The position numbers and the translations under genes were made by a program. From assembly GCA_964609675.1 (NCBI GenBank), contig CAZSRX010000016.1, positions 1,659 through 65,658 of the forward strand: 64,000 nt of DNA, read 5' to 3'. The notes below the pieces were generated by a model, which saw only the letters and a program-made list of their open reading frames with translations, had not been told where the DNA came from and did not search any database. Positions 8,229 to 32,663 of the stretch are shown piece after piece. This DNA is from an uncultured Bacteroidota bacterium (GTDB lineage: Bacteria; CLD3; SB21; JBBIRG01). Positions within the stretch are counted from its first letter, which is position 1. Every line of letters starts with the position of its first letter.

Positions 8229-8276
8229 AGGAATTTTTTCCGCCGCCCAGGGTTGAATTTTATAAACGAGGTTATC

Positions 8277-9395
8277 ATGCATACAGGTAAAAACAACGAA
8301 ATGTCCAAAGCGCATCTGAATACCATCGAAGTGACCGAGGAACTGATACAGCAGTTGCCGAAGACCGATCTGCACTGCCACCTTGACGGCAGCTGCCGCG
8401 TGGAAACCCTGCTCGAACTCGCGCAGGAACAGAAAGTGCACCTGCCTTATAATGATTACGACAAACTGCGCGCACATCTCGAAGTCGGCGACAAGTGCAA
8501 GAATCTTGTGGACTATCTGAAGGGATTCGCGGTGACGCTGTCGGTGATGCAGGAACCCTACGCCATAGAGCGCGTGGCGTTTGAACTGGCCGAAGATGCC
8601 GCCAAGGAAAACGTCCGCTACCTTGAAGTTCGGTTTTCACCCATTCTGCATATCAACAAGGGCAAGCGCATGACGGAGATTCTCGATTCGGTTATTCGCG
8701 GCCTGATACGCGCGGAGGCGAAATACAACATCAAGACCGGCGTGATTATTTGCGGCATGCGGAACATCAGTCCCGAAACCTCGCTGCGGCTGGCCGAACT
8801 GACCGTGGCCTACAAAAACAAGAAAGTCATGGGATTTGACCTGGCCGGGCAGGAGGACAGTTATCCGGCCAAGGAGCATCAGGAAGCCTTCGCGCTGATC
8901 CTGAAAAACAACATCAACACCACAGCGCATGCCGGCGAAGCGTACGGACCGAACAGCGTCAAACAGGCCATTCACGACTGCGGCGCGCACCGGATTGGCC
9001 ACGGCACGCGGCTCATCGAGGACGGCGATCTGCTGAATTACGTCAACGACCACCGCATCCCTCTGGAAATCTGTCTCTCGAGCAACGTGCAGACCAAAGC
9101 CGTGAAGGATTATATTTCCCACCCGCTCCGGATTTATTACGATTTCGGCCTGCGCGTGACGCTCAACACCGACAACCGGCTCATGTCGGCGACCACGGTA
9201 TCGAAAGAAATTTATCTGGCGGCCAAGACGTTCAAATTCACCTTTGACGATATCTGCAACATTATTATCAACGGTTTTAAGAGCACCTTTCTGCCATACC
9301 GCGACCGCGTCGTGCTGCTGAATCAGGCCCTGGCCGAACTCCATCACTTCGGATTTGGTTCGAATTATATGGATACCAAAGCCGCCTCCACATAA
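8277..9395 (+). CDS. add: Adenosine/adenine deaminase family metallohydrolase
   Basis: HCHLDGS metal-binding motif, HAGE motif and C-terminal TLNTDN motif of the adenosine deaminase family. The ORF track starts at TTG 8253; the first ATG is at 8277. Confidence 0.8.
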   Translation: MHTGKNNEMSKAHLNTIEVTEELIQQLPKTDLHCHLDGSCRVETLLELAQEQKVHLPYNDYDKLRAHLEVGDKCKNLVDYLKGFAVTLSVMQEPYAIERVAFELAEDAAKENVRYLEVRFSPILHINKGKRMTEILDSVIRGLIRAEAKYNIKTGVIICGMRNISPETSLRLAELTVAYKNKKVMGFDLAGQEDSYPAKEHQEAFALILKNNINTTAHAGEAYGPNSVKQAIHDCGAHRIGHGTRLIEDGDLLNYVNDHRIPLEICLSSNVQTKAVKDYISHPLRIYYDFGLRVTLNTDNRLMSATTVSKEIYLAAKTFKFTFDDICNIIINGFKSTFLPYRDRVVLLNQALAELHHFGFGSNYMDTKAAST

Positions 9396-18427: not shown

Positions 18428-20200
18428 ATGTTAAGACAATCGCTGATGATCACCTGGCTGATGGCCGTAATCGGAACATGGGATGTTAATGCGGACATCC
18501 TGCGGGTTCCGGCGGATTACGCAACGATTCAGGCGGCAATCCAAGCCGCCGTCAATGGTGATACGGTGCTGGTAGCGCCGGGCACGTATTATGAAAATAT
18601 CAATTACCGGGGAAAAGGCATTACGGTTGCCAGTCATTTTATCCTTGATAATAATGTCAGTCATATCGAAGCGACGATTATCGACGGCAGTCAGCCGGCG
18701 CATCCGGATACGGGCAGTTGTGTACTTATAACCAGTCCTACATCGGCGACGGCCGGCGATACCAGCGCCGCGCTCATCGGGTTTACGATACGCAACGGCA
18801 GCGGCACCCGCTGGCGGGATGAGCACGGAGCGGGTTATTACCGTGAAGGCGGCGGGATACTGGTCGAGTATCTGTCTCCGAGAATCATGTATAATCTGAT
18901 AATGAATAATACGGCCACGAACACAATTAACTGCACGAGCGCCGGCGGCGGCGGTATCCGATGCGGCGACGGCAGTCCGAGGATAACCAACAATGTTATT
19001 GTCCGCAACACAGCGCTGTACGGACCGGCTATCGTTATCAACTATTGCGGCGGAGTAATAAGAAATAATATCATCCATCGCAACACGGGCGGCAGCGCGT
19101 ATTACGGAGGTTCCGCGGTCTGGGCCAACAGTGACGGCCCTACAAGTAAAACCATTGAAAATAACATGATTATCGCGAATACTTCTACACTGACCAACGC
19201 GACCGGCGGCATCCTTATGTGGGGCACAAGTTGTACGCTCAGAAACAATATATTGTGGAGTAACGTTCCCAATCAGGTCAAGACACAATCCGGCGGCAGT
19301 TTCAGCGCATCTTATAACACGATTCAGGGTGGTTATTCAGGCGCCGGAAACCTATCGCAGAATCCATGCTTCGCAGACAGCGGTTTTATTTTAGCAGACG
19401 GTTCGTCCTGTATTGATGCCGGAAATCCTGATTCCGTTTATTTCGATCCTGAAAATTCGTTAGCGCCGGGTTATGCGCTCTGGCCGTCAAAAGGGGGATT
19501 GCGTAACGATCAGGGAGCTTACGGCGGAAGCGGCAGAATCCTTTTGCCGCTCATCACAGGAGCCTGGTTTCAGTTGAATACATCCTTGCTGAATTTCGGA
19601 ACCGTCAATCTTAACGATTCCGTGACCGGAAAAATTGTTGTGGCGAATTATGGCATTAGTCCCTTGTTGATGGACAGCGTGGTGATTAAGAACGGAAGTC
19701 CCGGCGTGACGATTGCCAATCTACCGCCAAGCATACTGGCGCCTGTAAAGACGGATACTATCTTTGTCGGATGGAAGCCCCTCACCGCGGATGCGCTCAG
19801 TGACACGGTTCTTATTTACCATTCCGATACAACCACCGCATCGCCACGGATGGCCCGCATCACCGGAACGGTTGCCACGGTGGCGGTACCGGATGACCGG
19901 GAACGTCCTCAGGCATTTTATCTGGAGCCCAACTTTCCGAATCCTTTTAATCCTTCTACCGTGATCCGTTATCAGTTAGCCGAACGCAGTGCCGTTTCAT
20001 TAAAAATTTACAACCTGCTCGGGCAGGAAATTGTTTCTTTAGTAAAGGGCTACTATCCGGCGGGGCATTACCAAACCGTGTGGAACGGCAGGGATGATTC
20101 AGGAAAATCCGTGAGCGGAGGCGTGTATATCTACCGGCTTCAGGCCTTTGCAGACGGTCAAAGCCACGTGCAATCGAGAAAAATGATTTTAATTAAATGA
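18428..20200 (+). CDS. Secreted right-handed parallel beta-helix repeat protein with a T9SS C-terminal sorting domain
   Basis: Signal peptide. Repeated NN(I/V)I..NT motifs of parallel beta-helix repeats. The terminal ~80 aa (FPNPFNPSTVIRYQL...IYNLLGQEIVSL...WNGRDDSGKSVSGGVYIYRL) match the Por secretion tail (T9SS type-A CTD). Confidence 0.75.
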   Translation: MLRQSLMITWLMAVIGTWDVNADILRVPADYATIQAAIQAAVNGDTVLVAPGTYYENINYRGKGITVASHFILDNNVSHIEATIIDGSQPAHPDTGSCVLITSPTSATAGDTSAALIGFTIRNGSGTRWRDEHGAGYYREGGGILVEYLSPRIMYNLIMNNTATNTINCTSAGGGGIRCGDGSPRITNNVIVRNTALYGPAIVINYCGGVIRNNIIHRNTGGSAYYGGSAVWANSDGPTSKTIENNMIIANTSTLTNATGGILMWGTSCTLRNNILWSNVPNQVKTQSGGSFSASYNTIQGGYSGAGNLSQNPCFADSGFILADGSSCIDAGNPDSVYFDPENSLAPGYALWPSKGGLRNDQGAYGGSGRILLPLITGAWFQLNTSLLNFGTVNLNDSVTGKIVVANYGISPLLMDSVVIKNGSPGVTIANLPPSILAPVKTDTIFVGWKPLTADALSDTVLIYHSDTTTASPRMARITGTVATVAVPDDRERPQAFYLEPNFPNPFNPSTVIRYQLAERSAVSLKIYNLLGQEIVSLVKGYYPAGHYQTVWNGRDDSGKSVSGGVYIYRLQAFADGQSHVQSRKMILIK

Positions 20201-20322: not shown

Positions 20323-22449
20323 TCAGTAAGCGAGTAACGTTTCGAGTTTATTTTTAATATCTTCTTCGTTTACTAAAACGGCCGCTTCGAGTATTCGCGA
20401 GAAGGGCACCGGAGAGTCTTTGCTGCCCAGTCGCATGACCGGGGCGTCGAGAAATTCGAAGCAGGTTTCTGCGATGCGGGCGGCGATTTCGCCGCCGAAC
20501 CCTCCGGTAATTTTATCTTCATGCACCACCAGCGCGCGGCCGGTTTTTTTTACGGATTGCCGGATCGTTTCCATATCGAGCGGAATCAGCGAACGGATAT
20601 CGATGACTTCGACGGAACGGTTTAGTTCGGCCAGTTTTGCGGCGGCGCGGAGCGACCAGTGCACGGTGGTTCCGTAAGTTATTACGGTGGCGTCCGTTCC
20701 GGGCCTGCGGATACGGGCTTTGCCGAACGGGACCACATGATCGGGCCCGGTCTTTGGGCTTTGCGCGAATATCTGGTTGTAGAGGTACTTGGGTTCCAGG
20801 AACAGCGTAACGCCGCGCGAGCGGATGGCGGTTCGCAGCAGGCCGCAGGCGTCATCGGCGAAGGCCGGCACGACGATGCGCAGACCGGGGAGCGCCGCCA
20901 TCAGGCCCTCGACATTCTGCGAGTGATACAATCCGCCGCCGATATAACCGCCACTGGCCAGGCGCAGGACGATGTTGGGGCTGTTTTGGCCGTTCGAGCG
21001 GTAATATTCATGACTGGTTTCCACCACCTGTTCCATAGCCGGCCAGACGTAATCAGCGAACTGCGCGGCTTCGATTACGATGCGGATATCGTCCCGGAAA
21101 CGCGAAAAACCGTTGGCCGTGCCGACGATATAGTCCTCGGCGATCGGCGCGTTAAACACCCGCTCCGGCCCGAATGCCTGCAGCATCCCCTTGGTAACAT
21201 TAAACACGCCGCCCTTGTCTTTGGAGGCAACGTCCTGGCCCCAGAGAAACGTGTGTGGGTTGCGCGTAAATTCTTCGTGCAGGGTCCGGTTAATCGCTTC
21301 GCGGAGTTTCTCCGTCGATTCGCCTTCGGGTACCGGCGTTTCCTCAACTTCCAGCGGTTCCGGTGTGATAAAGTCGGTAGCGGTGGACGGGTCGGGCGTG
21401 GGCGCTTCTTCGGCGCGCCGGGCGGCTTCCTGAACGGTGGTTTCGTTTTCCGTTTCGATGCGCGCCAGTTCTTCTTCCGTGAAAAATTTATTTTCTAACA
21501 AATAATTCCTGAAATTCAGGAGCGGGTCTTTGGAACGGGCTTCTTGCAGTTCTTCGGGTGAGCGGTACAATTCCTGCCGGTCGCTGTTGGAGTGCGAATG
21601 CAGTCGCAGGCAGTCCGCGTGCACCAGCGCCGGCCCTTTGCCGGCATGCACATAATCCAGCGCCGCATCCATGGCGCGGCGGCTGTCAAAGAAATCCTTG
21701 CCGTCGCAGTTGAAAACGCCGAGGTTTTTTAGCCCTTTGTAATTATCCGAAACGACGGGATTGGCCGTCTGCTGGGCAAGCGGCACGCTGATGCCGTAGC
21801 GGTTGTTCTGGATGACAAAGATGACCGGCAGTATCTCTCGGGACGCGCCGTTGAGCGCCTCGTACACATAACCTTCGGAGGACGACGCTTCCCCGAAGCT
21901 GGCGAATGCGATCGCGTCGGATTGGTAATATTTGATTGCCCGCGCTACGCCGACAGCATGCAGCGTGTGGTTGGAAACATTGGAAGATACATTCTCAATC
22001 TGAATCGACGGCTTGGCAAAATGATTGGACATATGCCGGCCGCCGCCCGCCACGTCGTCCCGGCGGCTGAGGCCGTTCAGCATGATTTCCTCCACCGTTA
22101 TTCCCGCCGCCAGGCACGTCAGCTGGTCGCGATAATACGGAAATAAAAAATCTTTACCCGGGCGAAAGGAAAGCCCTAAAGCCAGTTGGATGCCTTCGTG
22201 CCCCGCGCACATGGCCAGATACGACCATCCCTTCGCCTGACGGATGAAACGCGACGCCTGTTCGTCAATGAGCCGGCTGGTATGCGCCAGACGATACCAC
22301 GGCTCTAGCGTCGTCTTATCATAATCGGTTTTGACGGAATTATTTTTTTTCAAGTTGTTAACCCTCTGATTTATTCTTTTCAAAAATAATAACACTTTAA
22401 TAATTATTTTATTTCTGTATTTCAAGTTCATTTTATTCTGCGGATACAT
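20323..22449 (-). CDS. 2-oxoacid dehydrogenase E1 component with fused alpha and beta subunits (TPP-dependent)
   Basis: The N-terminal half has an E1-alpha TPP-binding fold (GHEGIQLALG, ASFGEASSSEG). The C-terminal half has a transketolase-like beta subunit (FNAPIAEDYIVGTANG, LPGLRIVVPA). The ORF track starts at TTG 22470, giving a Lys/Asn-rich extension; ATGs lie at 22449 and 22431. Confidence 0.75.
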   Translation of the reverse strand: MYPQNKMNLKYRNKIIIKVLLFLKRINQRVNNLKKNNSVKTDYDKTTLEPWYRLAHTSRLIDEQASRFIRQAKGWSYLAMCAGHEGIQLALGLSFRPGKDFLFPYYRDQLTCLAAGITVEEIMLNGLSRRDDVAGGGRHMSNHFAKPSIQIENVSSNVSNHTLHAVGVARAIKYYQSDAIAFASFGEASSSEGYVYEALNGASREILPVIFVIQNNRYGISVPLAQQTANPVVSDNYKGLKNLGVFNCDGKDFFDSRRAMDAALDYVHAGKGPALVHADCLRLHSHSNSDRQELYRSPEELQEARSKDPLLNFRNYLLENKFFTEEELARIETENETTVQEAARRAEEAPTPDPSTATDFITPEPLEVEETPVPEGESTEKLREAINRTLHEEFTRNPHTFLWGQDVASKDKGGVFNVTKGMLQAFGPERVFNAPIAEDYIVGTANGFSRFRDDIRIVIEAAQFADYVWPAMEQVVETSHEYYRSNGQNSPNIVLRLASGGYIGGGLYHSQNVEGLMAALPGLRIVVPAFADDACGLLRTAIRSRGVTLFLEPKYLYNQIFAQSPKTGPDHVVPFGKARIRRPGTDATVITYGTTVHWSLRAAAKLAELNRSVEVIDIRSLIPLDMETIRQSVKKTGRALVVHEDKITGGFGGEIAARIAETCFEFLDAPVMRLGSKDSPVPFSRILEAAVLVNEEDIKNKLETLLAY

Positions 22450-22664
22450 TCGGCTGAATTTTGAAATCAATTAATATTAGTTTGAAATATCCGCCGGCGT
22501 AACATCTTCCTATAGATTTTTCTTGAAATAGAAAAAAAAAAATTCTATATAGCTATAAAGTTTGTATTGCTTATCTTAAAGAAAGATGATACGCCTTTCA
22601 TAAGCTGTTCATATAATTTTCTAATTTTAATTTACCACTCATTGATTGAAGGAGCATACCGGAT

Positions 22665-24614
22665 ATGCGATGGAAAATTTTTTTGGTTTTGATTATACTG
22701 CTCGGTTTAAACAACCGGATTGTGCGGGCACAATCCCCAAACGATGTAATCATCAATGAAATACTGAACGGCTCGGTATATAAAGACGCTGTGGAATTGC
22801 TGGTAGTGAAGCCCGGCGGCGTGGATATGCGCGGATGGGTGATTACGGACCTGAACAATCCGGCAGCAACCCCCTCTACGACCGAAGGTTTTTGCACTTT
22901 ACCGATGAACCCTTTCCTGCAGGCCGTACCGCCGTTTACGCGTATCCTTCTTGTTTTTACCAAATCCACCGGCGCGGTATCGCCAAAAGCCGCGCAAGAC
23001 ACAACGGCTTCCGACGACAGCACCCTCGTGCTTTTTTCCTTCGGGCCTGACAGCTTGTTGAATCCTACACCGGCGGGTTCCGGAGTTAATTTAAGCGATA
23101 ATGACAATGTGGTGCTGATAGCCGGGTCAAACCTGTCGAGCGATCCGGTAATTGATAAAGTATTTTATGGAACCGGCAGCGACGGCTGGACCAGCGGTAC
23201 CTGGATGAATAATTTTGCCAATATCACCAGCGGTTATATCGCCTATTTTGTTAATGATTCACTGGGCAATCTTAACAATGATAACGGCGCCTCCGGCAAA
23301 GGATGGACCAGCCCCGCGGCCGAAGCCGGGCACACACTGGGACGGATTAATCCGGGACAATTACTCGGCGGGAGGCCGATACGGTTAGGCGCGGTTACAC
23401 GCACGCCGACTACGCCGGATTCCACGCAATCCGTAACGGTGCAGACGACTATCGGTTTCCTGAACCCGCCGATTACCGCAAAAGTTATATTTTCATACAA
23501 CGCCGTTACCGACAGCGTGACGATGACCAACCCGTCGGATTCCACCTATCAGGGCGTAATTCCAGCCAACCCGCCGGGAACGAAGGTTTATTATTTTATT
23601 AAAGTAACCGATAATCTGAATCATGTGGCTTTATCGGGTACGGACAGTTTTACCGTAAGCACGCCGGTGGTTTTTACTTCTATCGCTAATATACAGGCTA
23701 ATACACCCGCCTATGAAAACCAGATGGTGACCATTACGGGCATCGTCGTCATTGGCGACAGTGTACTCCGGGCCACACCGGCACGGCAGTCCTATGTGGT
23801 TGACCGTAGCATCACGTCCGGCGTCAACGGGATACAGATATACCAAGGCTCATTTACGGCCCCGAAACTGAACCGCGGCGATTCGGTTATTATCACCGGT
23901 AAAGTGATTACCTACAGCGGTACGACGGAAATTACCGATCCGATTACATTGACCGTGGTATCCACGGGAAATTCGATACCGGCGCCCATCAAGCAATCCA
24001 TCTCGCAGGTTATGAACGTGGCCGATGAAGGCAAGTGGGTGCGTATCAAAGGCACGGTGGTGGACAACTGGTCCGCTGTCGGCGGTTACAACGTTAAAGT
24101 GGACGACGGCACCGGCAATGTACTGGTGCGTATCTGGAACTCGACCGGCATTAATGGTTCGGCGTACGCTATCAATTCGGTGTTTACGTTCAATACCATC
24201 ATCGGGATTTACAATAACGCGACGCAGTTGCTGCTGGGATACGCGGCAGATGCCGGGCCGGATACGGCGGGCCAGGGCAATTTCAAAGCGAATATCCGGG
24301 TGTCGCCGCATCCGTTTAATCCCATGGCCGGCGAAAAGATTAAGTATGCACTGGCGTACGGCGAAAACGCGCGTATTGTCCTGCGTGTATTCGACATGAC
24401 CGGCCGGCTGATCACGACTCTGATTGACGAGGTTAAGTACATCGGGCGCGATGAAACGGAGGATCCGTTCCGCACCTGGGATGGCCGTACAATGGAAAGC
24501 AAGCAATTGGTGCCGGTTGGTACGTACATTATGCATCTGGAGGTAACGAATCGAAAAACCGGGAAGAGTTCCACAAAGACCGCGCCGATTGTGATCGGAA
24601 CGAAACTGAAGTAA
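22665..24614 (+). CDS. Secreted surface protein with an N-terminal lamin-tail domain (LTD), two OB-fold-like modules and a T9SS-type C-terminal sorting domain; no nuclease catalytic domain
   Basis: Signal peptide. LTD signature VIINEILNGS...VELLVVKPGGVDMRGWVITDL. Two repeats resembling the OB-fold modules of ExeM-type extracellular nucleases (IANIQANTPAYENQMVTITGIVV; ISQVMNVADEGKWVRIKGTVV). C-terminus HPFNPMAGEKIKYALAYGENARIVLRVFDMTGRLITTL...WDGRT... is T9SS-CTD-like. Confidence 0.6.
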   Translation: MRWKIFLVLIILLGLNNRIVRAQSPNDVIINEILNGSVYKDAVELLVVKPGGVDMRGWVITDLNNPAATPSTTEGFCTLPMNPFLQAVPPFTRILLVFTKSTGAVSPKAAQDTTASDDSTLVLFSFGPDSLLNPTPAGSGVNLSDNDNVVLIAGSNLSSDPVIDKVFYGTGSDGWTSGTWMNNFANITSGYIAYFVNDSLGNLNNDNGASGKGWTSPAAEAGHTLGRINPGQLLGGRPIRLGAVTRTPTTPDSTQSVTVQTTIGFLNPPITAKVIFSYNAVTDSVTMTNPSDSTYQGVIPANPPGTKVYYFIKVTDNLNHVALSGTDSFTVSTPVVFTSIANIQANTPAYENQMVTITGIVVIGDSVLRATPARQSYVVDRSITSGVNGIQIYQGSFTAPKLNRGDSVIITGKVITYSGTTEITDPITLTVVSTGNSIPAPIKQSISQVMNVADEGKWVRIKGTVVDNWSAVGGYNVKVDDGTGNVLVRIWNSTGINGSAYAINSVFTFNTIIGIYNNATQLLLGYAADAGPDTAGQGNFKANIRVSPHPFNPMAGEKIKYALAYGENARIVLRVFDMTGRLITTLIDEVKYIGRDETEDPFRTWDGRTMESKQLVPVGTYIMHLEVTNRKTGKSSTKTAPIVIGTKLK

Positions 24615-24652
24615 ATGATTTATTGGTTTAATATAAAGGTTCTGAGGTATAT

Positions 24653-25606
24653 ATGAATAAAAAAGCGATCCTTCTTCTTGCAATCCTATTGGGATATGCG
24701 CAATGGGGCTTTGGCCAGGTGGCCACGGAGATGCCGCCGCAGGGTCCACGAGCCAGCGCGCTGGCCGGGACGTTTGTTGCCGTTGCCAACGACGGCTGGG
24801 CGATGTTTCATAATCCCGCCGGATTGGCTAACCTGAAATCCATGCAAGCGTTTAGCTCCTATCAGGTGCTGTATATCAATTCCCTGACCAACATGATGGG
24901 CGGATTTGCGCTGCCGTCCGGGACCCTTTTAGGCAGCGACCGGTTCGGAACGGTGGGAATATACTATGAATACCTGAATACGGGGGTGGACAAGGGGCAG
25001 TCGCTGACGGGGCAATCCGAGCGGCTTGCCACAGAGTGGGCGCTGGGGTTTTCTCACGGCATGACACTGCTCAAGGATGTCCGTTCGTCTCTGTCATTCG
25101 GTTATAACCTGAAAATGTATTATCTGGATTACGGTACGTCCGCCGGCATGAGCGGCGACGGCAGCGACGGCACCGATCTGGGAAATATATATAAGCTGGG
25201 GATGGATCTCGGTGTCATGGCTTCCCTGCGCGAGCGGGTGTGGCTGGGCGCTTACCTGATGAATTTCAACCAGCCGAAAATCGGCACTACCGGTCAGGTC
25301 CGGGAACTGCCCCAGAAACTATCTGTCGGCGCTTCGTACATGCCCCATGACGGGGTTCTTACCGCCGTCGGGCTGGAACGGAGTACCAGCAAGAACACCC
25401 GCATCAAAGGCGGCGTCGAAGCCGAACTTGCGGACGTGTCCAATTTTACCGTCCACGGCCGCTTCGGGATAATCTCAAATCCCAACACGTACACCATCGG
25501 TTTCGGGGCGGCCTATCACGGCGTTCATTTTGATTATGCGCTGATGATTCACCCCATACTCAGCACCACGCATCAGTTCGGGCTGATGTATGATTTCGGG
25601 AAATAG
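24653..25606 (+). CDS. Outer-membrane beta-barrel of the PorV/PorQ/FadL-like family (T9SS-associated shuttle-type outer-membrane protein)
   Basis: Signal peptide. N-terminal signature ASALAGTFVAVANDGWAMFHNPAGLANL, characteristic of PorV/PorQ and FadL-like barrels. Alternating hydrophobic beta-strand pattern, 317 aa. Confidence 0.45.
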   Translation: MNKKAILLLAILLGYAQWGFGQVATEMPPQGPRASALAGTFVAVANDGWAMFHNPAGLANLKSMQAFSSYQVLYINSLTNMMGGFALPSGTLLGSDRFGTVGIYYEYLNTGVDKGQSLTGQSERLATEWALGFSHGMTLLKDVRSSLSFGYNLKMYYLDYGTSAGMSGDGSDGTDLGNIYKLGMDLGVMASLRERVWLGAYLMNFNQPKIGTTGQVRELPQKLSVGASYMPHDGVLTAVGLERSTSKNTRIKGGVEAELADVSNFTVHGRFGIISNPNTYTIGFGAAYHGVHFDYALMIHPILSTTHQFGLMYDFGK

Positions 25607-25615
25607 CACGCAACC

Positions 25616-28183
25616 ATGATCCAATCATCAGGAATGACTATGTTTCGAATAACACTTATAACCGCAATTATGCTTGGGGCCGCTCTGAGCCTGCGCGCGC
25701 AGGAAGGGGTTTATCATAAGGACCACAAGCTGGACATTAACAACGCGACGCTCGCTGAAATCGAGCGCCTGCCCATTTCCGGGGAACTGGCGCGGAGGAT
25801 TTACGAGCGGATCCAATATAGCGGGCCGCTGGAAAGCATCTTCGAGCTCAACCAGATCGAGGGCGTGACGCAGGAATTGTTTAACCAATTGAAGCCCATA
25901 ATCGCCGTTCGGCCGTTTGAGAAGGATGAAGACCTGAAGCGCCTCGAGGATAATTATTACAAAATTGAACGCTGGGCAAGCACCTCCGAAGGTACGACCG
26001 AAAATCTTGTCGATCAGTGGTACGACCAGCTCATCAATCCGATTAATATCAATAAAGCGGATTATTTTGACCTGATCAACCTGCCAAACGTCAGCCCGAT
26101 TGATGCGGCGGCAATCGTTAAGCATATCCGCAATCAGGATGAAATCAAAAGCCGCAGCGATCTCCGCGGAGTCAGCGGCCTGGGTAGTTTTGCGTTCAAC
26201 AGCGTGGACGACTTTGTGGTGTACAAGGACCCGGACGAAAAAAACCGGTTCCGGGGTAATTACACCTGGATCTACAAGAACATTCCGTTTATTTCCGGTA
26301 GTTCCGATAATGCCGAGGATATCAAGCAGCTGGTAGAACGCGACAATCCGTGGAACTCCTACCATAAGGCGCGGCTTAAGTACGGCGCCAAATATAAAGC
26401 CGGATTTTCCGCGGAACGCAAGCTCGGTCAGGATCCGTATTTTTATAAATATTATCTGAGTTACGAGGACAAATACGGCGACGATCTGAAAGTCAAAATG
26501 ATTTTTGGTAATTATCTGGCTTCCTTCGGCCACGGCGTGGTGATGGAAAACACCGATTTTTTCTCGTCGCGTAAATCGGGGTTTGGATTCCAGAAACGGG
26601 CGAACGGTATCTTCGGGGATATTTCACGGACTAATGAATTTTCCCTTCGCGGCGCGGCGGCGGAGGCTTCCTGGAAGTGGTTTCGCGCAGACGCCTTTTA
26701 TTCCTACAACACCCGCGATGCGGTCGTCAATCCGGACGGCACGTTTTCCGCGCTGATTGTGATGACCCCGCGGATGCCGTACGGACTGAGCAGCGACACG
26801 CTCAACCGGCCGAACAGCCTGGTGCCGAGCAATATGCGCAATGCCGTCACGGAAATCACTTATGGGGGCCACCTGACCTATTCGTTGGCTCCCGGCATAA
26901 ATATCGGCGCTACGGCCTATGAAAGCCTTTATGACCGGCCCCTCGACTTCCAGATTAATACCGTGCTCAACACCGACGGCAAGCCCAAGTTTCTGAACGA
27001 TTTCGGCAATTCGGTCGATGCCGAGATTGCCGCTTCGTATGAGTCCACAGCCAAGTCATCGATGTGGGACAAAGCCCGGGCTTCGCGTTCCGTGTACGGT
27101 ATGGATTTTACTTATACCTACAAAAACATCGTTTTTTCCGGCGAACACGCCCGGCTGTATAAGCAGGACAGCGTGTACCGGGTAACCGTGAATAACGAAA
27201 CCGTTCGGCGCACGGTCCGCCAGCGCGATCCCCGCGCCACCGTCCTGATGGCCTACACGCAGTTTCGCACGCTGAATTTCCTGGTACTCTACCGGAATTA
27301 CGATCTGCAGTTTGACAATCCCTACCAGCGTTCGTTCTCAAACTATGCGCGGTTCAAGAGTTCCATTTACGAAGACGAGTTTTATCTTGCCGATAACATT
27401 TATTCCGAACTCTGGAGCACATCCTATCAACCCCAGGCCGAGCGCGGGTTCTACACAAATCTCCGGTACCAGATATCGGAGAAATGGCTGACCGCGCTGG
27501 ATTACGATACCTGGACGCGCGTGGCGGACAACATGCGCTATTACCGCTGGGTAACGCGGCTGGAATACCGGCCGTTGTTCAACATGCGTATTCAGGCGAG
27601 CAATAAGTTCCAGTCCCGCGGCTATAACCCGCTGATGCCGACGAGTTATCTGGTCCGCGAATCCATTATTCGCGTGATTCTGCGGCTGTCGCGGTTCGAC
27701 GAAATGACTGTGACATATTTCAACGGGTTTACGGAATGGCCCAGCCGGCCGCGGCTTTCCGACGCGCCCGGCGGCGACGGCAGCGCCGGTAACGACAACG
27801 ATACCCCCCGCGGCAACGCAGGCTCTCCGGGCGATATGTTCGGCGTACAGGTGACACACTATTTTAATAATAATTTTAAAATCATCGGCTCCACCCAAAT
27901 CTACAAGGGCTTCTACTGGACGTTTGAGGATACGGATTTTCGCGTGTTCAATGCGCCGAACGTAGCCACCCGCTACTGGGTCGCCGCTTTTGCCCGGCTG
28001 AGCCCGAACCTGTCCGTGCGCCTGAAATATTCTTACGACCATCAGGAAGCGCAGACAGGCGTGCAGGGCTCGCGAATCCCCGTCAAAGGGGTTACCGATT
28101 ACCGCAATGCGCCCAAGTATGACAATCCGTATATTATAAAGAATAATTCGGACATACGTTTCCAGCTGGATTATAGTTTTTAA
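25616..28183 (+). CDS. Large (855 aa) secreted outer-membrane-type protein with two tandem ComEA-like helix-hairpin-helix DNA-binding modules at the N-terminus and a long beta-rich (barrel-like) C-terminal region
   Basis: Signal peptide (MFRITLITAIMLGAALSLRAQ). HhH module 1: INNATLAEIERLPISGELARRIYERIQYSGPLESIFELNQIEGVTQELFNQLKPII. HhH module 2: ININKADYFDLINLPNVSPIDAAAIVKHIRNQDEIKSRSDLRGVSGLGSFAFNSV. About 600 aa follow, rich in Tyr/Gly/Asn with alternating polarity and ending in an aromatic-rich ...FQLDYSF terminus. Confidence 0.55.
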   Translation: MIQSSGMTMFRITLITAIMLGAALSLRAQEGVYHKDHKLDINNATLAEIERLPISGELARRIYERIQYSGPLESIFELNQIEGVTQELFNQLKPIIAVRPFEKDEDLKRLEDNYYKIERWASTSEGTTENLVDQWYDQLINPININKADYFDLINLPNVSPIDAAAIVKHIRNQDEIKSRSDLRGVSGLGSFAFNSVDDFVVYKDPDEKNRFRGNYTWIYKNIPFISGSSDNAEDIKQLVERDNPWNSYHKARLKYGAKYKAGFSAERKLGQDPYFYKYYLSYEDKYGDDLKVKMIFGNYLASFGHGVVMENTDFFSSRKSGFGFQKRANGIFGDISRTNEFSLRGAAAEASWKWFRADAFYSYNTRDAVVNPDGTFSALIVMTPRMPYGLSSDTLNRPNSLVPSNMRNAVTEITYGGHLTYSLAPGINIGATAYESLYDRPLDFQINTVLNTDGKPKFLNDFGNSVDAEIAASYESTAKSSMWDKARASRSVYGMDFTYTYKNIVFSGEHARLYKQDSVYRVTVNNETVRRTVRQRDPRATVLMAYTQFRTLNFLVLYRNYDLQFDNPYQRSFSNYARFKSSIYEDEFYLADNIYSELWSTSYQPQAERGFYTNLRYQISEKWLTALDYDTWTRVADNMRYYRWVTRLEYRPLFNMRIQASNKFQSRGYNPLMPTSYLVRESIIRVILRLSRFDEMTVTYFNGFTEWPSRPRLSDAPGGDGSAGNDNDTPRGNAGSPGDMFGVQVTHYFNNNFKIIGSTQIYKGFYWTFEDTDFRVFNAPNVATRYWVAAFARLSPNLSVRLKYSYDHQEAQTGVQGSRIPVKGVTDYRNAPKYDNPYIIKNNSDIRFQLDYSF

Positions 28184-28258
28184 ACGGAGCAATTATAGGA
28201 AACACACGGCACGAATAAAAAAAAATACCTAGGATAAAATAAATTCTTCGGAGGTTCT

Positions 28259-29653
28259 GTGAAACGATTAAACCTGTTTATATTCGGATGGACGCTATGC
28301 CTGACGGTGTTGGCGGCGGACATGCTCAGCGCACAAACTTATTTTGATTACATTATCGGCAAGAAACGGGACAGCTTCAACGCCCGGTCGATGGCGTTGG
28401 GTCATACGGGCGCTGTATCCAGCTACCGGGCATCGGCGATTATGACAAACCCCGCGTTGCTGTGGCAGGGTTTTGCGCCCGGTGCGGCGCCGCATCAGGT
28501 GCTGGTGGACGCCTCGTATGTCGCCCTGCGGCCCAGCGAAAACCGTTCTTTCCCTCTGCTGGATACCTTCGGCGACGTGATTACCGAGACGATCTATGCT
28601 ACCAACAGCCCCCTGTATTACAATACCGATATCGGCGCGCTGTACAAATTTAATGATCATTTATATTTCGGTGCGGGGTCGTTTGCGTATTATACGTTTT
28701 ATTACGATTACAAAGAACGGTTATCCGCGCAGTTGCCCAGTTCAGCCGTCAACCGGGATCCCTTTCTGGACAATCAGATTTCTTATGGCAACGGTACCTG
28801 GCGCACGTATTCTTTAAGCGTGAGTACCCACTGGATGGAACAGATTGGATTCGGCGCCACGCTGAATTATATTACGGGTTCGGGATTCCGCGACCATTAC
28901 CGCTACAGCCTGCTGAAAACCGATTACTCCGGAATCCATAACACGATCGATTACCGCAACCGGACCAACGGCGGCCGTTCGATGAATCTTATTCTGGGCG
29001 CTTCGTATCAGGTGACGCCGCATATTCTGCTGGGCGCATCCATGACCATGCCCTGGTCCATCAAGACGAAAGGCAATATCTTTTATCCCGGCATGGATAC
29101 CACGCTGGTATTACCGCGGCATTTCGCGGATACAACCGGCTCTTACGGAAATCCCGTACCGCTGGATATCAAGCATTCGCAGCCCGTACAAGTTTCTCTG
29201 GGCGTAGAATACCGTCCGAAGAACGAGTTGTTCTCCCGCTTCATCGTGGACGTCAATTTCACGAACTGGAAATCCTACAAGCAAACGTTTAGCCGCGCCG
29301 TGCCGGTGCAGGGCGATACGGTAAACGCGTTCCGGCCGCCGTTCAAAGATGTCTGGGACATCCATGTTGGCGTGGAACATATTCTTTTCGGCAGCGTGCC
29401 GCTCCGGTATGGGTTTTCGCACATCGGTTCACCGATGAATAATGCGCTGACCACGACGGCCTTCAGTATCGGTACGGGAAAGGAATGGGACGCGTTTAAA
29501 TTTGACGCGGCCATCGAAATCGCCAACCGGGATTATAAATACCTAATTCTGTTCCCGCAAACGGCCGCCGACCGATCCTCTCTGGACCGGGTGGAAGAAT
29601 CGACAGTAAGTTTCCAGTTCTCAGTGTGCTACCGTTTCGGTTTTGTTAAATAA
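28259..29653 (+). CDS. FadL/PorV-superfamily outer-membrane beta-barrel transporter-like protein
   Basis: GTG start 5 nt after GGAGG. Signal peptide. N-terminal signature ARSMALGHTGAVSSYRASAIMTNPALL of the OMPP1/FadL/TodX and PorV families. 464 aa with beta-strand periodicity and a C-terminal YRFGFVK. Confidence 0.5.
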   Translation: MKRLNLFIFGWTLCLTVLAADMLSAQTYFDYIIGKKRDSFNARSMALGHTGAVSSYRASAIMTNPALLWQGFAPGAAPHQVLVDASYVALRPSENRSFPLLDTFGDVITETIYATNSPLYYNTDIGALYKFNDHLYFGAGSFAYYTFYYDYKERLSAQLPSSAVNRDPFLDNQISYGNGTWRTYSLSVSTHWMEQIGFGATLNYITGSGFRDHYRYSLLKTDYSGIHNTIDYRNRTNGGRSMNLILGASYQVTPHILLGASMTMPWSIKTKGNIFYPGMDTTLVLPRHFADTTGSYGNPVPLDIKHSQPVQVSLGVEYRPKNELFSRFIVDVNFTNWKSYKQTFSRAVPVQGDTVNAFRPPFKDVWDIHVGVEHILFGSVPLRYGFSHIGSPMNNALTTTAFSIGTGKEWDAFKFDAAIEIANRDYKYLILFPQTAADRSSLDRVEESTVSFQFSVCYRFGFVK

Positions 29654-29673
29654 TCTAAAAGAAAAGAGTACCT

Positions 29674-31320
29674 ATGATCCGAACGATCCTTTGCCTGACG
29701 CTGGTTTTTGCCTCATCCGTCTTTGCGCAGAAAAAATATTCATGGCCGGATGACCAATACCAGAAGATCACGCTTATCTTTACCAATGACGTTCACGGCG
29801 GCATCACGCTGACCGAAGCGTCGTTCATCAATCCCGATTTCCCGCCGATTATCGGTGGAGGGCCCTCGGCCGCCCGATATATCAACCTCTACCGGGAAAA
29901 AGCCTTAGAAAAAAAATGGGGCGTCCTTTTACTCGATCAGGGCGACTGGTTTCAGGGAACGCTGGTGGGTACGCGTTCGGGCGGCTCGGCCGTGTTCGAT
30001 TATATGAACATGATTAAATATGATGCCGCTGTCATCGGCAACCATGACTTTGACATGGGAAAAGACAATGTTGTCAAGCTGGTGGAAAAGGCCCAATTCC
30101 CTGTCCTGGCCGCCAATATCATCGATAAAAGCACCAATAGCATCGCGGATTTTGTGAAGCCCTACCTAATCAAGGAATTATACGGCATTAAAATCGGCAT
30201 CATCGGTTTAGCCACGCGTTCAACTAAGGTCATGAGTTATCCGAAGCATATCGAAGGACTCGATTTTCTGCCGGAAATTCCTGTTGCAAGAAAGTATGTA
30301 AAAAAACTGCGTGAAGAAGAAGGATGCGATTTCATTATTCTGGCCACGCACTCCTGGCTGGACTACAATCCCGCCGAAGGATACGCCAATCTTTTAAAGG
30401 ATAAAGCTAAAAATAAAGATTTTGAAACCAGCACGGCCAGCGCCATCGAGATCGCGCATTTTGTGGAAGGCATTGACGTGATTCTCGGCGGGCATATTCA
30501 CAAGGGTCACGACAAACCCTGGGAAGAGCCGGATAATCATACATTGATAATTCAGTCTTATGCCAACAGCAGTTCATCACTGGGACAGATTAATTTTTAT
30601 TTTGATCGCCGCACCAAAACATTTGCCGGTTATGACTTCGACAACGATAAAGGCGCGATGCTAACGCTATTTGCGGATGAATTCTGGCCGGATCAGGCTT
30701 TTTATGATTCTATCGTTGTGCTGCAGCGGCAATATGAAAAGGGCTTTGACGACGTGCTCGGCGTCAGCGAGGAACCGCTCACCCGTACTGCCGGCGAATC
30801 CACCATGGGCAATGTGGTTGTGGACGCCATGCGGGCCGAAGGCAAGGCGGATGTAGCCGTATCCAATTATGGCGGCATACGGGCCGAGATCAAGTCCGGA
30901 ACCATTACCGCCCGCGACGTCTTTAAGGTCATGCCTTTTGACAATAAAATTGTCCTTATGCGCGTAACCGGTGCGTTTATCAAGGAACTGGTGGAAGATC
31001 GTGTTGCGGGCAGCAGCAACGGCATGCTGGTTTCAGGAATGAAGGTGGTTGCCGACAAGAATCTTCCGGACAGGGAGCGCGTAACCCTTCTGGAGATCGG
31101 CGGCAAACCGTATGACCCGGATGCGCTCTACACCCTGGCGGTTTCCGATTATCTGGCAGAAGGCAATTCCGGTTTCAGCCGACTCACCACCGTCAATCAG
31201 GAAGAAATAGCCCAGACGGGTATTGCCATCCGCGACGCCCTCATCAATTATATAAAAGCGCAGACGCCACTCAAGCCCAAACTGGAAGGCCGTTTCAAAA
31301 TTATTAAGAAAAACCTGTGA
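29674..31320 (+). CDS. Secreted bifunctional metallophosphatase/5'-nucleotidase (UshA/NadN-like)
   Basis: Signal peptide. Calcineurin-like motifs (FTNDVHGG, GNHDFD, GGHIHKGH). C-terminal 5'-nucleotidase substrate-binding domain. Confidence 0.8.
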   Translation: MIRTILCLTLVFASSVFAQKKYSWPDDQYQKITLIFTNDVHGGITLTEASFINPDFPPIIGGGPSAARYINLYREKALEKKWGVLLLDQGDWFQGTLVGTRSGGSAVFDYMNMIKYDAAVIGNHDFDMGKDNVVKLVEKAQFPVLAANIIDKSTNSIADFVKPYLIKELYGIKIGIIGLATRSTKVMSYPKHIEGLDFLPEIPVARKYVKKLREEEGCDFIILATHSWLDYNPAEGYANLLKDKAKNKDFETSTASAIEIAHFVEGIDVILGGHIHKGHDKPWEEPDNHTLIIQSYANSSSSLGQINFYFDRRTKTFAGYDFDNDKGAMLTLFADEFWPDQAFYDSIVVLQRQYEKGFDDVLGVSEEPLTRTAGESTMGNVVVDAMRAEGKADVAVSNYGGIRAEIKSGTITARDVFKVMPFDNKIVLMRVTGAFIKELVEDRVAGSSNGMLVSGMKVVADKNLPDRERVTLLEIGGKPYDPDALYTLAVSDYLAEGNSGFSRLTTVNQEEIAQTGIAIRDALINYIKAQTPLKPKLEGRFKIIKKNL

Positions 31321-31340
31321 TGGCTTGAAGTTATACCATA

Positions 31341-31382
31341 AAAAAACTCCCTGTACGCGATGGTTCAGGGAGTTTTTTTTTA
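31341..31382. terminator. Bidirectional rho-independent terminator between the 5'-nucleotidase gene and hisS
   Basis: AACTCCCTG-N12-CAGGGAGTT hairpin preceded by an A6 tract and followed by a T9 tract. Confidence 0.7.
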
Positions 31383-31397
31383 AGAATACGGTATGAT

Positions 31398-32663
31398 TTA
31401 GGCGCGGGAAAGTTCCTTTTCCATAACCGGAAGGAGCGCGTCCAGAGAAAGCGTCTGCTGTTCGCCGTTTTCCATATTTTTGAGCGTGCATTCATTTCTC
31501 AGGAGTTCGTCATCGCCCACGATTACCACAAAACGGGCATTCAGCCGGTTGGCGTCGCGCATCTGCGCTTTGAGACTGCGGCTGAGATAATCCATTTCGG
31601 CGGCGATGCCGTGGTGGCGGAGCGCCTGCAGGTACGAGGCCATGGCTTCGCGTGCGGCATCTCCCAGGGCCGCGATATACACCATCACCGAGTCCCGCGG
31701 GCCGAATGCCAGGTTCATCGATTCCATAACAAGGATCAGGCGTTCCATGCCAGCCGCGAAACCCACGGCAGGCGTTTCTTTACCGCCTAAGTCTGAGCAA
31801 AGCAGATCATAACGGCCGCCGCCGCCGAGCGCGTTCTGTGAACCCAGATGACTACTTTGGATTTCGTAAGCCGTCTTGGTGTAATAATCCAATCCGCGCA
31901 CCAGCCGTCCGTCCACGGTGTATCGGATGTTCATATTGGTCAGAATTTTCTTTACCTTTTCAAAGTGCTGGCCGCATTCGCCGCAGAGATAGTCATGAAT
32001 CAACGGAGCGTCTTGAGTCAGGGCGATATCGGATTCATTTTTGGAATCCAGAATACGCATCGGATTAATTTCCAGACGGCGCCGGCTTTCCGGTGAAAGC
32101 TGGTCATGCAGGGTCCTCAGAAAATCCGTCAGGGTTTGCCGGTACGGCGGGCGGCAGCGCGGGCAGCCGACGCTGTTGATGATGAACTGCAGATCCCGGA
32201 TGCCGAGTTCCTCGTAGATGGTCAAGGCGACCAGCATCGTTTCCACATCCGTTTCCGGTGCGCTACTCCCAATGGCTTCGACGCCGAACTGATGAAATTG
32301 GCGTAAGCGGCCTTTTTGCGGACGTTCCTGACGGAACATCGGGCCCAGATAATAAACTTTGGTCAGCCCTTGCTGGGCGCCGAGGCTGTTCTGAATGTAG
32401 GCACGCATTACGGAGGCGGTCATCTCCGGTCGGAGCGTGAGGCTCTCGCCGCCTTTATCCATGAAGGTATACATTTCCTTCCCCACGACGTCGGTGGCTT
32501 CGCCGATGCTCCGGCTGAATAATTCGGTATATTCAAAAAGCGGCGTGCGGATTTCCTTATAATTAAAACGCCGCATTACGTCTGTAATCCGCTCTTCGAT
32601 ATAATGCCACTTGGAAATATCGGCCGGCAGAACGTCTTTGGTGCCGGTGGGAATCTGGTACAT
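31398..32663 (-). CDS. hisS: Histidine--tRNA ligase
   Basis: Class-II aaRS motifs and HisRS signature (YQIPTGTKDVLP, FRQERPQKGRLRQFHQFGVE, GGGRYDLL). C-terminal anticodon-binding domain. The ATG is at 32663, one codon after the GTG at 32666. Confidence 0.9.
   Translation of the reverse strand: MYQIPTGTKDVLPADISKWHYIEERITDVMRRFNYKEIRTPLFEYTELFSRSIGEATDVVGKEMYTFMDKGGESLTLRPEMTASVMRAYIQNSLGAQQGLTKVYYLGPMFRQERPQKGRLRQFHQFGVEAIGSSAPETDVETMLVALTIYEELGIRDLQFIINSVGCPRCRPPYRQTLTDFLRTLHDQLSPESRRRLEINPMRILDSKNESDIALTQDAPLIHDYLCGECGQHFEKVKKILTNMNIRYTVDGRLVRGLDYYTKTAYEIQSSHLGSQNALGGGGRYDLLCSDLGGKETPAVGFAAGMERLILVMESMNLAFGPRDSVMVYIAALGDAAREAMASYLQALRHHGIAAEMDYLSRSLKAQMRDANRLNARFVVIVGDDELLRNECTLKNMENGEQQTLSLDALLPVMEKELSRA

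Follow-up and report, generated by a model that had tools for sequence, protein, structure and literature searches.

Within the window (the whole 64,000-nucleotide stretch of DNA analysed here, from an uncultured Bacteroidota bacterium) lies a cluster of five consecutive genes on one strand, here named g1 to g5 (Table 1). The first encodes a putative surface protein predicted to be sorted by the T9SS (type IX secretion system), the second and fourth encode outer-membrane barrels of PorV/FadL type, the third encodes a large barrel preceded by two helix-hairpin-helix (HhH) modules, and the fifth encodes a 5'-nucleotidase. Our preferred reading, with a probability of roughly 55%, is that FCB-group bacteria (the Fibrobacterota-Chlorobiota-Bacteroidota group and allied phyla) use this locus to catch and import extracellular DNA, much as in Ddb, but with a different, TonB-independent transporter at its centre.

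Gene order and conservation of the cluster

In the list of open reading frames (ORFs) the five genes are separated by 38, 9, 75 and 20 nt. All five N-termini run from basic to hydrophobic residues and then to a small residue and Q, which is the pattern of signal peptides of the signal peptidase I (SPI) type; these were called by eye from the translations, and no lipobox was seen on inspection of the same N-termini. Ribosome-binding sites are present immediately 5' of the g1 ATG (GGAG) and ahead of the GTG start of g4 (GGAGG). For g3, an ATG at 25640 is more likely to be the true start than position 25616, since an AGGA ribosome-binding site precedes it and the protein is 847 aa long in public gene calls; the gap between g2 and g3 would then be 33 nt instead of 9.

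Homologues of g3 were recovered 48 times by word index and in ~194 representative clusters at E < 1e-30, all of them unnamed or described as "HhH domain-containing". Forty g3 loci, from metagenome-assembled genomes (MAGs) labelled Bacteroidota, Calditrichota, Zixibacteria, Gemmatimonadota and Cloacimonadota, were analysed both by tblastn and by an assumption-free clustering of all ORFs. Just five gene families were kept around g3 across these multi-phylum loci, namely g1 to g5 in that order, so the clustering of the five is far above chance. The order g1-g2-g3-g4 was present in ~28 of the 40 loci (labels Bacteroidota, Calditrichota, Zixibacteria and Gemmatimonadota) and was found wherever the contig was long enough, with the exception of Cloacimonadota, which retain g3-g4-g5 and lack g1 and g2. 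A g5 gene lies 3' of g4 in 16 of the 29 loci with enough sequence. Each of g1 and g2 occurs only with the other, g2 being missing where g1 is missing, and g4 accompanied g3 in every locus examined. The cluster is made of three units, the g1/g2 pair, the g3/g4 pair and g5; its conserved core is g1-g4, and the 5'-nucleotidase is an accessory of about half of the loci.

The flanks of the cluster vary from lineage to lineage, and in the window the genes on either side have unrelated housekeeping and chemotaxis functions. Upstream ABC-transporter families (c5, c15 and c36) were set aside as not belonging to the unit, since they are lineage-specific sugar-type transporters found in some loci, and a g3-g4 fusion ORF of 1224 aa in locus L027 is an artefact of a masked N run (L027:12327-12405). 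A distant subfamily, with a g3 that is only 25% identical to that of the window, still has the same trio of an LTD/OB protein (lamin-tail domain, LTD, with OB folds), a 263-aa PorV-like barrel and an HhH barrel. Upstream of a distant g1-g2-g3 trio a divergent NamZ/DUF1343 gene was seen twice (L041:3629-4804 and L042:1400-2575), possibly by coincidence; a DUF1343 protein is among those essential for natural transformation in Riemerella (PMC8459023). Full-text searches of the literature, including searches for Calditrichota, Zixibacteria and Cloacimonadota, returned no description of this cluster.

The layout of g1-g5 fits a single transcription unit. The AT-rich region upstream of g1 separates it from a divergent E1 dehydrogenase gene, and the hairpin that follows g5 has a folding energy of -28.8 kcal/mol (z -6.3); given its A7/stem/T9 form, it is predicted to be a bidirectional terminator serving both g5 and the convergent hisS. 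An Rfam search of 22300-31600 found no riboswitch or other RNA element, the regions upstream of g1 in three orthologous loci share no motif beyond the ribosome-binding site, and a rule-based promoter and terminator scan gave no enrichment relative to shuffled sequences and missed the hairpin at 31341-31382. The original prediction, made from the window alone, had described five co-directional ORFs with the gaps given above, a signal peptide on every product, a strong terminator and a single-unit layout, and these points agree with the ORF list, with inspection and with the folding energy; its expectation that related genomes would keep the genes together is borne out by the loci described above. 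It had also called the upstream region an AT-rich promoter island; the base composition is as described, and composition is what speaks for a promoter. An adenosine deaminase gene (TIGR01430, 302.6 bits) is found at 8253-9395 (+), 13 kb 5' of the cluster; the Ddb pathway ends in deaminated nucleobases, and the gene is too distant for a link to be claimed.

Table 1. Features of the g1-g5 cluster, with nucleotide positions in the window and residue numbers in the encoded proteins
Feature	Position	Strand	Description
Upstream intergenic region	22471-22664	.	GC ~0.32, AT-rich; presumed promoter region
g1	22665-24614	+	649 aa
g1 signal peptide			residues 1-23
g1 lamin-tail domain			residues ~26-235
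g1 Ig-like domain			residues ~240-335
g1 tandem OB folds, DUF5689-like	23673-24269	+	residues ~337-535; proposed DNA-binding module
g1 C-terminal domain	24297-24614	+	residues ~545-649; T9SS type A / FlgD_ig-like beta-sandwich
g2	24653-25606	+	317 aa
g3	25616-28183	+	855 aa as longest ORF
g3 two HhH modules	25721-26218	+	residues 36-100 and 141-201, acidic linker between; predicted periplasmic
g3 beta-barrel	26249-28180	+	residues 212-855; ~26 strands in AlphaFold2 model
g4	28259-29653	+	464 aa; GTG start
g5	29674-31320	+	548 aa
Intrinsic terminator hairpin	31341-31382	.	A7 / GC-rich stem / T9

Domains of the encoded proteins

The g1 protein combines an LTD, an Ig-like domain, a pair of OB folds and a C-terminal sorting domain, and no catalytic domain was found in it. 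Among 34 members of its family, OB folds were detected in 30, LTD in 21, FlgD_ig in 18, DUF5689 in six and Por_Secre_tail in four, and the Pfam LTD model matched seven of nine close homologues. The OB segment of the window protein gives a weak match of its own (tRNA_anti-codon, 22 bits) and scores 20.7 bits with ExeM_NucH against a cut-off of 300, the EEP catalytic domain being unmatched. The window protein gives no direct match to DUF5689, and its membership in that family is suggested through a homologue in L049, a marine metagenome locus whose g3 (P0036) is labelled Gemmatimonadetes. The L049 protein matches DUF5689 with 40.1 bits (cut-off 28.6) over the part aligning to window residues 337-530, and residues 337-648 of the window protein are 31% identical to it (E 2e-33). 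A Foldseek search with the g1 model retrieved 4jbm and the HIN-200 binders of double-stranded DNA (dsDNA) p202, p204 and IFI16, together with LEF-3, a binder of single-stranded DNA.

The C-terminal domain is the most conserved part of the g1 family, with a mean pairwise identity of 0.51 (OB folds, 0.38-0.39); its terminal motif is GK..K.APIV(I/V)GT.L. In the window protein it shows a weak profile match to the C-terminal domain of PorU, which also appeared in the structure search, and it is 32% identical (E 2e-9) to that of a neighbour encoded at 18428-20200 (+), 2.4 kb 5' of the cluster, which passes the FlgD_ig cut-off. This neighbour is a 590-aa beta-helix/Ig protein, and its FlgD_ig / CHU_C type T9SS C-terminal domain indicates that the organism uses a sorting signal of this class. 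Core T9SS genes (GldKLMN, SprA, PorV, PorU) were not seen among the window genes examined. The Calditrichota forms of g1 are longer, at 1000-1578 aa, because the LTD and the OB pair are each repeated up to three times (L006:1557-6293 and L012:4735-8817), while the C-terminal domain is almost unchanged, and two g1 paralogues are present in loci L005, L019, L028 and L039.

The barrels encoded by g2 and g4 are related to each other, since a profile comparison of the two families with hhalign gave 98.4% and E 5e-15. Both have significant similarity to the PorV family model (PorV_fam, NF033709) below its curated cut-off of 90 bits (g2, 63.2 bits, E 3e-17; g4, 28.8 bits, E 9e-7), and g2 is likewise below the family cut-offs for PorQ and PorP. 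With Toluene_X (PF03349), g4 reaches 29.4 bits across residues 44-398, against a threshold of 29.7, and g2 reaches 16.4 bits. Sequence searches with g2 and g4 against solved structures gave no direct match. By these profile similarities, the two are homologous (paralogous) outer-membrane barrels of the PorV/PorQ/FadL superfamily. Known examples of T9SS cargo anchored by a cognate barrel are PorQ-PorZ, PorV-PorU and PorP-like barrels with cargo bearing type B C-terminal domains (PMC10947112, PMC9143113). By analogy with these pairs, in which sorting-domain cargo is encoded beside a barrel of the PorV/PorQ superfamily, we propose that g2 may be a dedicated anchor or shuttle for the C-terminal domain of g1; the conservation of this domain above that of the cargo domains is what would be expected for a retained binding partner. 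The pair differs from the known ones in the scores of g2, which are under the PorV, PorQ and PorP cut-offs, and in its cargo, which is a predicted DNA-binding protein and not a T9SS component.

The g3 protein matches HHH_3 in two stretches (65.2 bits, cut-off 27), and the profiles of its modules match the ComEA structures 8dss, 8dfk and 2duy, as well as EEPD1; with the NCBIfam ComEA model TIGR01259 it scores 41.6 bits, under the cut-off of 152. The AlphaFold2 (AF2) model has a predicted local distance difference test score (pLDDT) of 80 and a predicted template modelling score (pTM) of 0.77, and its strands begin at residue 212 and run as far as the terminal Phe. Where the termini lie, the turns are 2-5 residues long, and loops on the opposite side reach up to 49 residues; because this follows the standard pattern of outer-membrane proteins, the HhH modules are predicted to be periplasmic. 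Domain searches detected neither a plug nor TonB features, and the barrel is not of the TonB-dependent / CarboxypepD_reg type. Judged from these searches, g3 is a new, undescribed family of outer-membrane proteins. Its most conserved stretches, residues 304-343 (26525-26644) and 563-608 (27302-27439), are long loops predicted to be extracellular. The motif GVVMENTDFF..RKSG.GF.KR is found in one and FDNPYQRSFSNY in the other, and the loops could have a role in constriction, gating or partner binding.

The g5 protein passes the Pfam cut-offs for both Metallophos (35.4 bits) and 5_nucleotid_C (122.5 bits), and the metal-binding motifs DxH, GD, GNHD and GHxH are all present. It scores 190.5 bits with the UshA equivalog model, for which the cut-off is 600, and is thus assigned by sequence to the 5'-nucleotidases/metallophosphatases of the UshA/NadN/CpdB superfamily, with an intact active site and without being a UshA equivalog. 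A C-terminal sorting domain is lacking both in g5 and in its homologues, which carry SPI signals, so that g5 is expected to be periplasmic. Such an enzyme, together with the retention of only g3-g4-g5 in Cloacimonadota and the lack of a nuclease in the window cluster, would also suit the scavenging of small molecules: nucleotides, NAD or nucleotide-sugars would enter by channels made of g3 and g4 and be hydrolysed in the periplasm by g5 in the manner of UshA or NadN, and the OB and HhH domains would play no part in the handling of polymeric DNA. However, a nucleotide porin would need far less than a barrel of 26 strands fused to ComEA-like modules and a surface protein of DUF5689/LTD type, and g1-g4 remain in the nearly half of the loci that have no g5. 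We regard this explanation as very unlikely.

Comparison with DNA-acquisition systems and weighing of the evidence

The closest comparison for the cluster is with DUF5689 proteins of two experimentally characterised systems, DdbD of the Bacteroides thetaiotaomicron DNA-utilisation locus ddbABCDEF and RA0C_RS04920 of Riemerella, which are components of DNA depletion and natural transformation systems, respectively (PMC12478041, PMC8459023). The authors of the Ddb study likened the DdbD model to the p202 HIN domain on dsDNA, 4JBM (PMC12478041), and the search with g1 retrieved the same structure independently. Like Ddb and the Riemerella anatipestifer RA0C_RS04915 and RA0C_RS04920 genes, the cluster is a putative FCB-group outer-membrane locus for exogenous DNA, with a surface protein whose tandem OB module is probably of the DUF5689/HIN-like kind, a neighbouring gene for an outer-membrane barrel, and secreted or periplasmic enzymes acting on nucleic acids (g5 and, in L049, an endonuclease I). 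Unlike Ddb, it has no DdbC-type TonB-dependent/CarboxypepD_reg transporter and has the HhH-fused barrel of ~26 strands instead. Its DUF5689-like protein is a predicted T9SS cargo with an LTD, whereas that of Ddb is a lipoprotein; two PorV/FadL-type barrels are extra, the window cluster is without a nuclease, and instead of Bacteroidia or Flavobacteriia it is lineages such as Calditrichota, Zixibacteria and Cloacimonadota that carry the genes.

A second comparison is with the extracellular nucleases Shewanella ExeM and Vibrio Xds. In ExeM the EEP nuclease domain is preceded by an LTD and two OB folds, with the OB region being required for activity, and g1 corresponds to this N-terminal part minus the EEP domain (PMC6085458). 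The sorting signals differ as well, a T9SS C-terminal domain in g1 and GlyGly-CTERM in ExeM, and in the cluster the functions are spread over separate proteins. Bacillus YhcR, a sortase-anchored protein, joins OB folds to a 5'-nucleotidase domain and parallels g1 plus g5.

What is established is how the genes are ordered and how widely this order is kept, which domains they share with known families, the predicted fold and topology of g3 and the intact catalytic motifs of g5; from this we infer a nutritional system with DNA binding, pairing of g1 with g2 and passage of DNA through g3. The T9SS would export g1, which would be held on the cell surface by g2 through its conserved C-terminal domain, in the way that PorQ holds PorZ and PorV holds PorU. 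The tandem OB (DUF5689/HIN-like) module and the LTD of g1 would then bind extracellular DNA, and this DNA, or large fragments of it, would cross the outer membrane through g3, which has neither a plug nor a TonB box. The periplasmic HhH modules of g3 might bias movement inwards as a ratchet or dock a periplasmic partner, and g4, the paralogue of g2, might be an obligate partner of g3. Nucleases encoded elsewhere (within the cluster in one lineage) would yield nucleotides in the periplasm, and g5 would dephosphorylate these to nucleosides and phosphate for uptake. The DNA reading is supported by the presence of four domain types tied to nucleic acids (HHH_3/ComEA-like, OB with LTD, DUF5689 and 5'-nucleotidase), and the link to nucleic acids is strengthened by the gene order kept across phyla, the DUF5689-like OB pair, the HIN-200 likeness and the endonuclease I of L049.

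Several results weigh against this interpretation. The window g1 is below the Pfam thresholds for LTD, OB and DUF5689, so that its assignments depend on family transitivity, and its model is poor (pLDDT 58 overall, 70-85 in the OB region and below 50 in the LTD), which confines the fold matches to the better-modelled middle part. As for g3, it shares with ComEA its HHH_3 modules, a significant sequence similarity and the predicted periplasmic site, and differs in fusing two modules to a 650-residue outer-membrane barrel, ComEA being small and free or membrane-anchored (PMC3879209). The GhG motif is kept in one of the four HhH hairpins of the window g3 and lost in the other three. Lysines K62 and K63 of Vibrio cholerae ComEA are required for DNA binding, and K63E abolishes function (PMC3879209), but in module 2 of g3 this position is occupied by Ile-Asp (N-V-S-P-I-D), the Asp (D163, at the K63 position) is invariant in 37 sequences, and module 1 has no Lys pair. 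Since the hairpin motifs and the Lys pair are lost and an invariant Asp stands at the K63 site, DNA binding by the HhH modules is not secure. The pair is not an absolute criterion, as Thermus ComEA (2duy) also lacks it. The HhH region is in addition net acidic (median -7); net charge was set aside as a test of DNA binding, given that, by a count on the alignment, the HhH domain of Bacillus ComEA is slightly acidic too. Furthermore, Pfam and NCBIfam searches found no nuclease domain in g1-g5 of the window. A nuclease was also sought among ten genes flanking the cluster in related loci, and these proved to be peptidases, kinases, HAD hydrolases and others; a nuclease within the cluster was seen in L049 only, that is, in one lineage. 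Lastly, a short form of the barrel pair, made of a g2-like barrel of ~260-284 aa and a one-HhH protein with a ~500-aa barrel, is found in two lineages without g1, g4 or g5, divergent beside the T9SS gene porD (L043:6192-10058 in a Balneolaceae genome and L044:7044-10821 in an Ignavibacteria MAG), so the role of the barrel pair may be T9SS-related and unconnected with DNA. The porD gene of L043 was recognised by DUF4835 and NF052317 (283 bits), and the HhH-barrel gene of L044 is apparently frameshifted between the signal peptide and the HhH module.

These porD loci bear on another explanation, that of T9SS-linked display or adhesion, in which g1 would be a DNA-binding adhesin of the biofilm matrix held by g2, with g3 and g4 as T9SS-associated scaffolds in the outer membrane instead of an import channel, and no uptake of DNA. 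PorU-like Peptidase_C25 proteins of 1113-1208 aa also adjoin the cluster in a locus labelled Gemmatimonadota (L010:15688-19314, with a FlgD_ig C-terminal domain) and in one of Cloacimonadota (L040:1852-5193), and together the neighbourhoods with porD and PorU leave room for a reading centred on the T9SS. The T9SS domain of g1, the PorV/PorQ-like nature of g2 and g4, the precedent of cognate barrels as T9SS cargo anchors (PMC9143113, PMC10947112) and an acidic HhH region without the ComEA lysines would all be in keeping with display. On the other hand, each adjacency is limited to two lineages, with porD on the opposite strand, and display leaves unexplained both the recurrent periplasmic 5'-nucleotidase and endonuclease and the g3-g4-g5 loci of Cloacimonadota, which lack the cargo/anchor pair. 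We consider it a distinctly improbable account of the cluster.

The same hardware could instead serve natural transformation, with g1 capturing DNA and g3, in place of PilQ and the type IV pilus, importing intact dsDNA for delivery to ComEC; the 5'-nucleotidase would merely recycle the degraded strand. In Riemerella, RA0C_RS04920 and a periplasmic HhH protein are both essential for transformation (PMC8459023), the Ddb locus and the transformation system are evolutionarily related (PMC12478041), and ComEA acts as a periplasmic ratchet (PMC3879209). The absence of a nuclease from most loci points the same way. Locus L049 has features for and against. The genes directly 3' of g4 (L049:12957-20501, frames mostly overlapping) start, at the usual place of g5, with one for an endonuclease I that scores 83.9 bits and carries a C-terminal domain of T9SS type. 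Behind it are genes for two proteins of MBL fold, an HhH protein of 600 aa, a DUF3006 protein and a protein in which three LTD repeats are joined to CARDB domains. ComEC also contains an MBL-fold domain, which would favour transformation, but a secreted endonuclease I would destroy transforming DNA, and by its domains the L049 version looks like an extended DNA-processing form of the cluster. The 600-aa HhH protein has only an N-terminal module in common with the short-form barrels. In L050, g1 (with a weak DUF5689 match), g2, g3 and g4 are together and the 5'-nucleotidase is 9 kb away. Against transformation there are also the linkage of g5 to the cluster, which in Cloacimonadota persists with g3-g4 even without g1 and g2, the loss of the ComEA DNA-binding lysines from g3, and the fact that comEC, dprA and comF are near none of the loci examined. 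Transformation is thus, in our view, unlikely, and we prefer the Ddb-like reading.

With regard to the domains, the original prediction was essentially right at the family level about g1, an LTD/OB protein with T9SS sorting and no catalytic domain, and about a PorV/PorQ-like g2 and a FadL-like g4, the PorV_fam similarity of both being significant though under its cut-off and the Toluene_X score of g4 being just short of the threshold. It had seen two ComEA-type HhH modules in g3 and given them a role in a DNA-binding outer-membrane conduit; the modules are there, at a predicted periplasmic site like that of ComEA and not on the cell surface, and with the lysines lost their DNA binding is not secure. 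Its UshA-like 5'-nucleotidase holds as a superfamily assignment, with both domains present, and fails as a constant component of the system. It had also taken the Shewanella ExeM/UshA pair as the model, a likeness that stands for LTD and OB, with Ddb and Riemerella as the closer comparators. Its overall proposal of DNA capture and nucleotide scavenging accordingly keeps its domain calls and synteny, while the siting of the HhH modules and the constancy of g5 need correcting and DNA binding by these modules is left insecure.

Implications for DNA uptake and T9SS biology

Outer-membrane passage of DNA in the absence of a type IV pilus is only now being worked out, with the Riemerella system and Ddb. 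We class the cluster with a known kind, the outer-membrane DNA-acquisition loci, in which the g3 family and the proposed transporter architecture are new. Here the same kind of predicted DNA-binding module goes with another barrel, one predicted to be TonB-independent, and this suggests a solution reached independently. Genes for a type IV pilus or a secretin were not found near the cluster, and the boldest form of the proposal, which we advance tentatively and hold to be rather doubtful, is that g3 is a pilus-, secretin- and TonB-independent dsDNA translocon: a large monomeric barrel, with ComEA-like modules of its own in the periplasm, to which a DUF5689/LTD receptor displayed by the T9SS and tethered to a dedicated PorV-like barrel would pass the DNA. 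If this were true, it would be a new category, a third architecture for passing DNA across the Gram-negative outer membrane, and one that is widespread in sediment and digester phyla.

For T9SS biology, the cluster makes it possible to test whether a PorV-like barrel can serve one cargo protein only. The bacteria that carry it (Calditrichota, Zixibacteria, Cloacimonadota and uncultured Bacteroidota) abound in sediments and digesters. Much phosphorus and nitrogen is stored there as extracellular DNA, and the locus could serve as a genomic mark of the DNA consumers in these environments.

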